In this document: positions 50,093 to 50,160 of the stretch, piece by piece
Position numbering within the stretch: the first letter of the stretch is position 1
Layout of the letters: every line of letters starts with the position of its first letter
Origin: Escherichia phage Turkey3
Reading direction: 5' to 3' (one strand)
DNA: 64,000 nt
Sequence record: PQ471515.1
Translations under genes and position numbers: made by a program
The notes under the pieces: model-generated
What the model was told of the DNA's origin: nothing
The model's input: only the letters and a program-made list of their open reading frames with translations
The model's database searches: none

Positions 50093-50122
50093 TTGAGACA
50101 AATTTTAAAGTAGTGATACAAT
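50093..50122 (+). promoter_or_regulatory. Early/middle promoter TTGAGA-N18-TACAAT
   Basis: Same TTGAGACAA -35 block as the promoter at 54041. Confidence 0.45.
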
Positions 50123-50125
50123 GTA

Positions 50126-50160
50126 GTCATCTTACAGAGGTTGTGAGATGACATTTTTTT
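50126..50160 (+). terminator. Intrinsic terminator after the fibre gene, overlapping the start site of the preceding promoter
   Basis: GTCATCT-13 nt loop-AGATGAC hairpin followed by ATTTTTTT. Confidence 0.55.

Follow-up and report, generated by a model that had tools for sequence, protein, structure and literature searches.

Elements between the tail-fibre and polymerase genes

We analysed the boundary between the tail-fibre gene and the DNA polymerase gene of Escherichia phage Turkey3 (PQ471515.1), within a stretch of 64,000 nucleotides (nt) that is referred to below as the window. The intergenic segment at 50,093–50,160 carries a promoter element whose −10 hexamer ends 3 nt before the 5′ arm of a terminator hairpin, and transcription from this promoter is predicted to start inside that arm. 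The initial annotation of the window had placed the −10 element at 50117..50122 and the hairpin arm at 50126, downstream of a fibre gene. The coordinates proved exact, a scanner found both elements, and the upstream gene was identified as a fibre gene by phrog_13229 and Pfam Gp53-like_C. The observed juxtaposition of the two elements was confirmed. The features of the locus are the following.

48377..50086, + strand, tail fibre gene, 569 amino acids (aa) (phrog_13229 tail fiber, E 8e-243; Pfam Gp53-like_C; "tail fiber" in the WPEC5 annotation)
50094..50100, + strand, −35-region box TGAGACA, overlapping TTGAGA at 50093–50098 (class-motif enrichment; TGrrACr in all relatives; Porf_262 of phage CBB)
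50114..50122, + strand, extended −10 element TGaTACAAT (consensus scan; TAnAnT invariant in the alignment)
50126..50152, + strand, terminator hairpin, stem of 11–12 bp, loop of 3–5 nt (folding energy, covariation, annotation in relatives)
50128..50129, + strand, invariant CA, predicted −1/+1 (alignment columns C36 and A37; present in every sequence examined)
50153..50160, + strand, U-tract, A50153 followed by seven T (50154–50160) (sequence; T-run of 4–9 nt directly 3′ of the stem in all relatives)
50171..50174, + strand, Shine-Dalgarno (SD) sequence GGAG of the 101-aa open reading frame (ORF) (ATGGAG nearly invariant in the alignment)
50185..50490, + strand, conserved 101-aa ORF starting with ATG at 50185, the first gene behind the promoter (phrog_12534, unknown function, E 1.6e-45)
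50515..50545, + strand, second intrinsic terminator, AGCCTCC...GGGGGCT and T-run (hairpin 50515–50535, between the 101-aa ORF and the polymerase)
50573..53578, + strand, family-B DNA polymerase (T4 gp43-like), 1001 aa (phrog_262, E 8e-220; Pfam DNA_pol_B_exo1 and DNA_pol_B)

In the promoter, TTGAGA (50093–50098) is followed after 18 nt by TACAAT (50117–50122), with TG at 50114–50115; counted from TGAGACA (50094–50100), the distance to TACAAT is 16 nt. GTA (50123–50125) separates the −10 hexamer from the hairpin. Generic sigma-70 matches were not enriched (35 found in 10 kb versus 35.4 expected from shuffled sequence), so a generic match alone carries no weight. The motif TGRGACR-N16-TAYAAT occurred five times in the window against an expectation of 0.04, an enrichment of more than 100-fold, and the copies, starting at 31445, 36152, 50094, 54042 and 62941, are all on the + strand, all intergenic and all 5′ of + strand genes. 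Four of the five contain TGn. The class is real and phage-specific. At 50094, the box, the fixed spacing and TGn stand together in an intergenic position and face an SD-bearing gene, as a sigma-70-type promoter would; its activity and its use by a sigma factor of this type are predicted from these elements. The other four copies, of the pattern TGrGACr-N16-(TG)nTAyAAT, span the following positions.

31445..31473, + strand, class promoter 5′ of the gp55-like late sigma factor gene and the SbcCD-like (gp47/46-like) genes
36152..36180, + strand, class promoter
54042..54070, + strand, class promoter
62941..62969, + strand, class promoter

The promoters at 31445 and 62941 are followed by hairpins without a U-run (31483–31499 and 62977–63004), which begin no more than 3 nt from the predicted 5′ ends and are possible 5′ stem-loops.

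The class has a counterpart in phages CBB and GAP32, where MEME detected a "divergent RpoD-like" class, TGAAACG-N13-TGnTATAAT, in 18 copies, most of them 5′ of genes for DNA synthesis and of the gp55-like gene (Buttimer et al. 2017, PMC5259590). TGn is present in all 18 of the CBB promoters. Spacing, extended −10, class of box and location 5′ of DNA-synthesis and gp55-like sigma genes agree with the window, whereas the box reads TGAGACA in the window and TGAAACG in CBB and GAP32. From this comparison, we read TGAGACA as the Asteriusvirus version of the TGAAACG box. The GenBank record of fHe-Yen9-03 also carries annotated −35/−10 signals at the promoter locus.

The hairpin at 50126–50152 has seven Watson–Crick pairs, and its stem extends to 11–12 pairs when G·U pairs are counted. 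Its folding energy (ΔG) was −13.7 to −15.2 kcal/mol with z-scores of −4.4 to −5.1, and none of 200 shuffled sequences was equally stable; the −13.7 kcal/mol fold has the z-score of −5.1, and −15.2 kcal/mol was obtained in a 43-nt context. The segment 50126–50160 shows what is expected of an intrinsic terminator, namely a stable hairpin that abuts a U-tract and covaries on the transcribed strand. It resembles the canonical form in its G–C-closed stem, the seven U directly behind it, its covariation and its strand specificity. It is atypical in being long, with only 4 G–C pairs among the 11–12, whereas the other terminators of the window have short stems of 6–10 bp, mostly of G–C pairs and mostly closed by tetraloops. 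Their stems do not share its sequence, and a −10 element directly upstream, looked for at the other terminators of the window, was found at none of them. The 5′ arm would, in addition, double as promoter discriminator and initial transcribed region, and a long, G–C-poor stem fits such a double duty. The fibre gene has no other terminator.

Conservation and covariation among relatives

To follow the arrangement across relatives, we compared the intergenic regions 5′ of the 101-aa ORF from 20 GenBank relatives (Asteriusvirus, Mimasvirus, Alcyoneusvirus and Eneladusvirus, and unclassified Klebsiella, Salmonella and Erwinia phages) and 20 IMG/VR contigs, which gave about 22 distinct sequences. The geometry was kept in every relative of this set, that is, in at least five genera and in metagenomic contigs. 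All of the sequences contain, in this order, TGrrACr, a free spacer of 16 nt, (T/C)GnTAyAAT, a hairpin, a T-run of 4–9 nt and an SD sequence. The −10 element lies 3–4 nt from the G/C-containing core stem in all of them; where A·U pairs with the U-run lengthen the stem, the distance to the first folded pair is 0–3 nt. The invariant columns of the MAFFT alignment are the G of the box, TAnAnT, the T-run, the SD sequence and CA at nt 6–7 after the −10 element; TGn is found in most relatives.

The pattern of divergence speaks for an active promoter. The spacer between the box and the −10 element diverges freely, while the −35 box, TGn, the −10 element and CA are kept, and the genes upstream vary between relatives, with homology picking up again at the promoter. 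These observations weigh against a reading in which the hairpin is a terminator only, the promoter-like motif is inactive here, and the 101-aa ORF and the polymerase are transcribed by read-through or from elsewhere. Generic sigma-70 matches do occur at chance level in this AT-rich DNA, and the start site is a computational prediction. The class motif, however, is more than 100-fold enriched and always intergenic and sense, and without the promoter, a full terminator would cut off the essential early gene just 3′ of it from transcription. We regard an inactive promoter as very unlikely.

The hairpin sequence itself changes between relatives (GTCATCTTACA, GACAACCTC, GCACGATGAGC, GGCATCCTAGC and GCATCTGAC), with pairing maintained. 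Covariation was measured in Python by register-anchored pair counts, an arm-permutation test and slid-register controls. Compensatory changes on both sides occurred at 9 of the 11 stem positions. Each arm paired with its own partner at 118 of 126 variable positions, compared with 83 ± 5 when the arms were permuted among the sequences, and 118 was reached in none of 10,000 permutations. The in-register pairing fraction was 0.93, against 0.31–0.43 with the partner slid by 1–3 nt. Since the sequences are related by descent, these numbers overstate their independence; the compensatory changes across genera are unambiguous despite the shared descent. RNAalifold, applied to a plain MAFFT alignment of 19 intergenic regions, returned no consensus structure, because the variable loops threw the 3′ arms out of register.

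The structure is also strand-specific. G·U pairs account for 24 of the 166 pairs, and in 11 of 14 sequences the fold of the + strand is more stable than that of its complement, which argues that the structure acts as RNA and not as an operator in duplex DNA. A terminator is annotated at the homologous site of five relatives, computationally in each case, by ARNold for G17 and CBB and by the annotators for UE-S1, Munch and Muenster. Sequence comparison thus confirms that the arrangement lies far beyond chance once its conservation is counted.

Start site and the two kinds of RNA

Initiation by sigma-70 holoenzymes usually takes place 7 ± 1 nt after the −10 hexamer, and a purine preceded by a pyrimidine is favoured. 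A50129, the seventh nucleotide after the −10 element and the fourth base of the 5′ arm, is the sole purine within this range, and C50128 precedes it. The usual spacing and the invariant CA lead us to predict A50129 as +1. In the relatives, the stem starts 3–6 nt upstream of the predicted +1, and the +1 A is base-paired in every sequence, as part of an invariant A–U pair.

Two kinds of RNA should arise from this geometry. In the read-through RNA of 14 of 14 distinct relatives, the full stem abuts the U-run with a gap of 0–1 nt. In the RNA from the predicted +1, the 3–6 basal pairs beside the U-tract are gone in all 14, with a loss of 5.5–10 kcal/mol. In the window, the energy changes from −15.2 kcal/mol (43-nt context) or −15.8 kcal/mol (read-through construct) to −7.2 kcal/mol for the RNA from A50129. 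The residual stem has 8 bp in the window and 5–9 bp across the sequences, and it begins at the 5′-terminal nucleotide; a single-stranded, G/C-containing gap of 2–6 nt, GACA in the window, sets it off from the U-run. In intrinsic termination, the upstream part of the RNA–DNA hybrid is unwound only if the stem extends as far as the U-tract. The residual stem stops short of it and should terminate poorly. The proposal of the initial annotation that transcripts start inside the 5′ arm, so that RNA from upstream meets a full terminator and the promoter's own RNA does not, gains comparative support from the fixed 3–4 nt, the invariant CA and the behaviour of all 14 relatives. Its statement that such transcripts could not form the hairpin holds for the basal pairs and the contact with the U-tract, which are lost, but not for the hairpin as a whole, as 8 bp with −7.2 kcal/mol still fold.

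From these results, we consider it fairly probable that the segment is one 68-bp intergenic cassette doing two jobs, late terminator and pre-late promoter. The hairpin 50126–50152 and the U-tract 50153–50160 would form the intrinsic terminator of the late tail-fibre unit. Polymerase arriving from upstream would copy both arms, place an 11–12 bp stem flush with the U-tract and release an RNA ending at about 50157–50160. The pre-late promoter, of early or middle type and of the class TGrrACr-N16-TGnTAyAAT, has its −10 element 3 nt before the stem. Initiation at A50129 within the 5′ arm would yield an RNA without the basal G–C, U–A and C–G pairs. The remaining stem of 8 bp, half as stable and set off from the U-tract by GACA, would not extract the RNA from the hybrid, and the polymerase would continue into the 101-aa ORF. 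The residual stem at the very 5′ nucleotide probably serves as a protective 5′ stem-loop for the mRNA. The elements, their statistics, conservation, covariation and energetics were obtained directly; the termination efficiency, the escape from termination and the stabilisation of the mRNA are deduced from them.

Several observations weigh against this assignment. The fused order saves no space, as it occupies 68 nt compared with 69 nt for an ordinary tandem at 46415–46483. A terminator follows the −10 element in only one of the five class promoters of the window, the other four being without, and the fusion is thus not general to the class. The distant locus of Sinorhizobium phage Phosso has a promoter without a comparable hairpin, which is uninformative. 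The −35 box departs from TTGACA, and phages of this group encode a sigma-70-family factor of their own, which leaves the holoenzyme and the exact start site uncertain. In the relatives outside Asteriusvirus, the truncated stem (−5.7 to −10 kcal/mol) lies just 2 nt from the U-run, and some self-termination is possible there. A search of the literature on 121Q, PBECO4, phAPEC6, fEgEco12 and RaK2 found no mapping of transcript 5′ or 3′ ends, and the papers on RaK2, phAPEC6 and fEgEco12 do not analyse promoters or terminators.

The short distance in the relatives outside Asteriusvirus, where the run comprises U5–U8, suits a different use of the hairpin. The hairpin and U-tract may act mainly on the promoter's own RNA, with pausing or partial termination at about +30 throttling or regulating the 101-aa ORF and the polymerase, through the truncated stem or, if initiation occurred further upstream, through the full stem. 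The truncated RNA still folds (−7.2 kcal/mol in the window; in relatives, up to −11.3 kcal/mol), and a second conserved terminator, with no promoter between it and the polymerase, indicates an operon already under read-through control. The −10 element, however, ends 3 nt before the stem, which keeps the basal pairs out of any normally initiated RNA; it is precisely the G–C pairs beside the U-tract, needed to disrupt the hybrid, that are lost; and the late gene upstream would be left without any terminator. We consider such self-attenuation unlikely, in the truncated-stem and in the full-stem variant alike.

The hairpin may also be a stabiliser only. The stem-loop would then shield the mRNA from 5′-end-dependent decay by RNase E/RppH, the T-run would be an AU-rich leader, and the fibre unit would be terminated weakly or incidentally. 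As the predicted +1 A is paired everywhere, no 5′ nucleotide is left unpaired, and the hairpins without U-run at 31483–31499 and 62977–63004 lie near the predicted 5′ ends of two further class promoters. As the order saves no space, a benefit to the promoter's own transcript is needed. This account does not explain the basal 3–6 pairs upstream of +1, which covary and are kept although they are absent from the promoter's own RNA, and which make sense only for read-through RNA. The T-run of 4–9 nt is flush with a G/C-closed stem everywhere, and terminator predictors call the site in the five relatives named above. Stabilisation as the sole function thus seems distinctly improbable.

We give hardly any credence to a DNA operator, in which the inverted repeat over +1 would be bound by a repressor dimer, perhaps of the 101-aa protein. 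The palindrome and the start site do overlap, and the protein has a weak match to a transcriptional regulator family and a distant homologue annotated as DNA-binding, but the 24 G·U pairs would be dyad-breaking G·T mismatches in duplex DNA, the + strand is the better folded, the arms diverge widely between genera although the protein is 55–93% identical, and neither the length nor the sequence of the loop is conserved, whereas the flanking T-run is. The operator/repressor reading was rejected on the G·U content, the strand asymmetry and the arm divergence. T4 gp43 has a translational operator; a similar operator was rejected here because the loop sequence and length are not conserved.

For the two-job cassette, the order of the elements calls for a reason. 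The initial annotation had pointed out that the insulation needs no spacer, but the lengths given above show no saving; with 68 nt and 69 nt, compactness cannot explain the retention of the order, and another reason is needed. Candidates are the 5′ stem-loop that the downstream mRNA gains, the clearing of the promoter by polymerases reading through late in infection, and historical contingency. Tentatively, we suggest that the start of the RNA decides how the palindrome is read, as a full terminator by late read-through from the fibre gene and as a non-terminating, protective 5′ stem-loop by the promoter's own transcripts, and that the order has been kept across at least five genera for this reason. 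The cassette may then be a start-site-gated terminator and, at once, a determinant of early mRNA stability, and it may in addition be a recombination joint at which host-range (fibre) modules are swapped.

A second fusion of promoter and terminator was found in phage CBB at 93,493–93,565, an unrelated locus between the structural gene CBB_165 and CBB_166. It reads TTGATT-N17-TGATATAAT, 2 nt, AGGAAATC-GTGA-GATTTCCT-TTTTT, then an SD sequence and ATG, and its predicted start site also lies within the stem. With this locus, CBB has two fused cases among the 36 promoters and 74 terminators listed in the consulted tables. A further candidate in the window was set aside. TATAAATA, the T4 late-promoter consensus, occurs at 54870–54877 and abuts a bidirectional terminator hairpin at 54879–54899; it is probably an A-rich flank that serves as the U-tract of the minus strand. 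Several of the CBB "late promoters" listed beside complement-strand terminators may be a similar A-rich-flank artefact.

The ordinary tandem at 46415–46483 lies after the major head gene. It consists of a bidirectional terminator (46415–46434) followed by a sigma-70 promoter of perfect consensus, TTGACA-17-TATAAT (46455–46483), which drives an HNH/endonuclease-like ORF at 46516–47613. The segment 46444–47073, which covers the 5′ part of this ORF, has no similarity to the otherwise 98% identical phage WPEC5, and because of this the region may be a mobile nuclease insertion among the late genes.

Genomic setting, known systems and implications

The region 49000–51500 is 98% identical to Escherichia phage WPEC5 and 85% identical to 121Q, PBECO4 and G17 of the genus Asteriusvirus. 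On these identities, the phage is an Asteriusvirus-type (121Q/RaK2-like) jumbo phage; 121Q, PBECO4 and G17 belong to a group of RaK2-like jumbo myoviruses of about 350–385 kb. Two further features bear on the timing of the fibre unit.

48338..48345, + strand, AATAAATA, T4-late-promoter-like box (read from the sequence; about 32 nt 5′ of the ATG of the fibre gene)
31528..32370, gp55-like late sigma factor gene, within the window

A gp55-like sigma factor encoded in the window and a late-type box 5′ of the fibre gene make it plausible that the tail-fibre unit is late. The box at 48338–48345 is the presumed origin of the late transcripts that arrive at the terminator, and it agrees with the ATAAATA late motif given for phage CBB (PMC5259590). 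A second AATAAATA box, at about 47993–48000, precedes a small ORF (48012–48335) immediately 5′ of the fibre gene, the counterpart of a G17 gene annotated with a T5orf172 domain.

The first gene behind the promoter encodes a protein that is restricted to RaK2-like jumbo phages. Pfam and PDB searches gave no match; phrog_639, "transcriptional regulator", was matched weakly (E 1.6e-7). Its distant homologue in Sinorhizobium phage Phosso (469 kb) is 30% identical, is annotated as "DNA binding protein" and is encoded two genes upstream of the polymerase. The C-terminus of the 101-aa protein is acidic (ADDDY). The second terminator (50515–50545) is kept in 12 relatives and is annotated in G17, Munch, Muenster and CBB. 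A promoter-like element between this terminator and the ATG of the polymerase was sought in the window and in 12 relatives, and none was seen. As the second terminator precedes the polymerase without a promoter in between, expression of the polymerase probably depends on partial read-through by transcripts of the 50094 promoter, and would be attenuated relative to that of the 101-aa ORF. The initial annotation had described the arrangement as insulating the downstream replication genes from late read-through. This is a reasonable reading, but it needs qualification, in that the first client is the 101-aa protein and a second terminator stands before the polymerase.

The cassette also lies at a joint between modules. 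Compared with phage BF17, which is 96–99% identical on both sides, the C-terminus of the fibre is replaced over window positions 49772–50107, and BF17 carries an extra tail-fibre-assembly gene in the exchanged segment. The right-hand junction falls at 50107/50108, in the promoter spacer between the −35 box and the −10 element; compared with G17/121Q, homology resumes at 50086. These few junctions, next to a cassette that itself lies between core genes, hint that a host-range module was swapped with its right-hand joint at the cassette, much as in the shuffling mediated by promoter-early stem-loops (PeSLs).

PeSLs are composite promoter/terminator cassettes of T4-like phages, for which promoter and terminator activity was shown with lacZ fusions; in one subclass, the stem-loop lies downstream of the −10 element (Arbiol et al. 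2010, PMC2839356; Comeau et al. 2014, PMC4122927). The cassette described here would function like this subclass. Both are intergenic cassettes between a stop codon and an SD/ATG, with a sigma-70-like promoter and a stem-loop that ends upstream transcription; here, 50084–50187 holds the stop codon, the promoter, the hairpin with U-run, the SD sequence and the ATG. PeSLs have been linked to the shuffling of modules, a trait at which the few junctions here hint, the fibre-module swap relative to BF17 ending inside the promoter spacer. In contrast, PeSLs form many near-identical copies (about 100 bp conserved) in hyperplastic regions beside ORFans, whereas this is a single, orthologously fixed cassette at a boundary of fibre and polymerase core genes in another phage lineage. 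With one of the five class promoters fused in the 64-kb window and a unique hairpin sequence, no multi-copy family was found. The stems of PeSLs are often of the G-run/C-run type and lie most often between or over the −35/−10 boxes, while here the start site is predicted inside the stem. The cassette is thus not a PeSL in the strict sense, and the related regulatory architecture is already known. When the literature was searched for transcription starting within a terminator hairpin, the PeSLs were the closest case found.

The orthologous site of CBB has been predicted in both halves. Table S6 lists the promoter Porf_262 at 187,472–187,500 and Table S8 the terminator Torf261 at 187,504–187,543, 3 nt downstream of Porf_262; all of these predictions are computational, by MEME and ARNold (Buttimer et al. 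2017, PMC5259590). The elements stand in separate tables, and the consulted parts of the paper contain no remark on their juxtaposition or on a start within the stem. On this evidence, both halves had already been predicted, and the composite concept is not new.

Bacterial leaders offer two further comparisons. The hairpin in the 5′ untranslated region (UTR) of ompA is a 5′-terminal stem-loop that stabilises its mRNA. By analogy, the transcript predicted here would start base-paired, with a stem of 5–9 bp (8 bp in the window); the difference is that this stem would be the remnant of a larger terminator and not a dedicated element. The frd terminator of E. coli doubles as the ampC attenuator, and here, too, one hairpin with its U-tract ends one unit and sits in the leader of the next. 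In frd/ampC, however, the hairpin is located well 3′ of the second promoter, whose transcripts contain it in full and are attenuated, whereas with the geometry described here the promoter's own transcripts would lack the base of the stem.

The finding opens no new field, as composite promoter/terminators were already known from T4-like phages. It may be of use in annotating the transcription units of the poorly studied RaK2/121Q-like jumbo phages, in interpreting terminators predicted within 5′ UTRs, and in synthetic biology, where it could serve as a compact insulator part. If end mapping confirms the predicted ends, the cassette would show cleanly, and in evolutionarily conserved form, how late and pre-late units can be kept apart in a phage: the position of the start site, and not a protein factor, would decide whether the terminator is seen.

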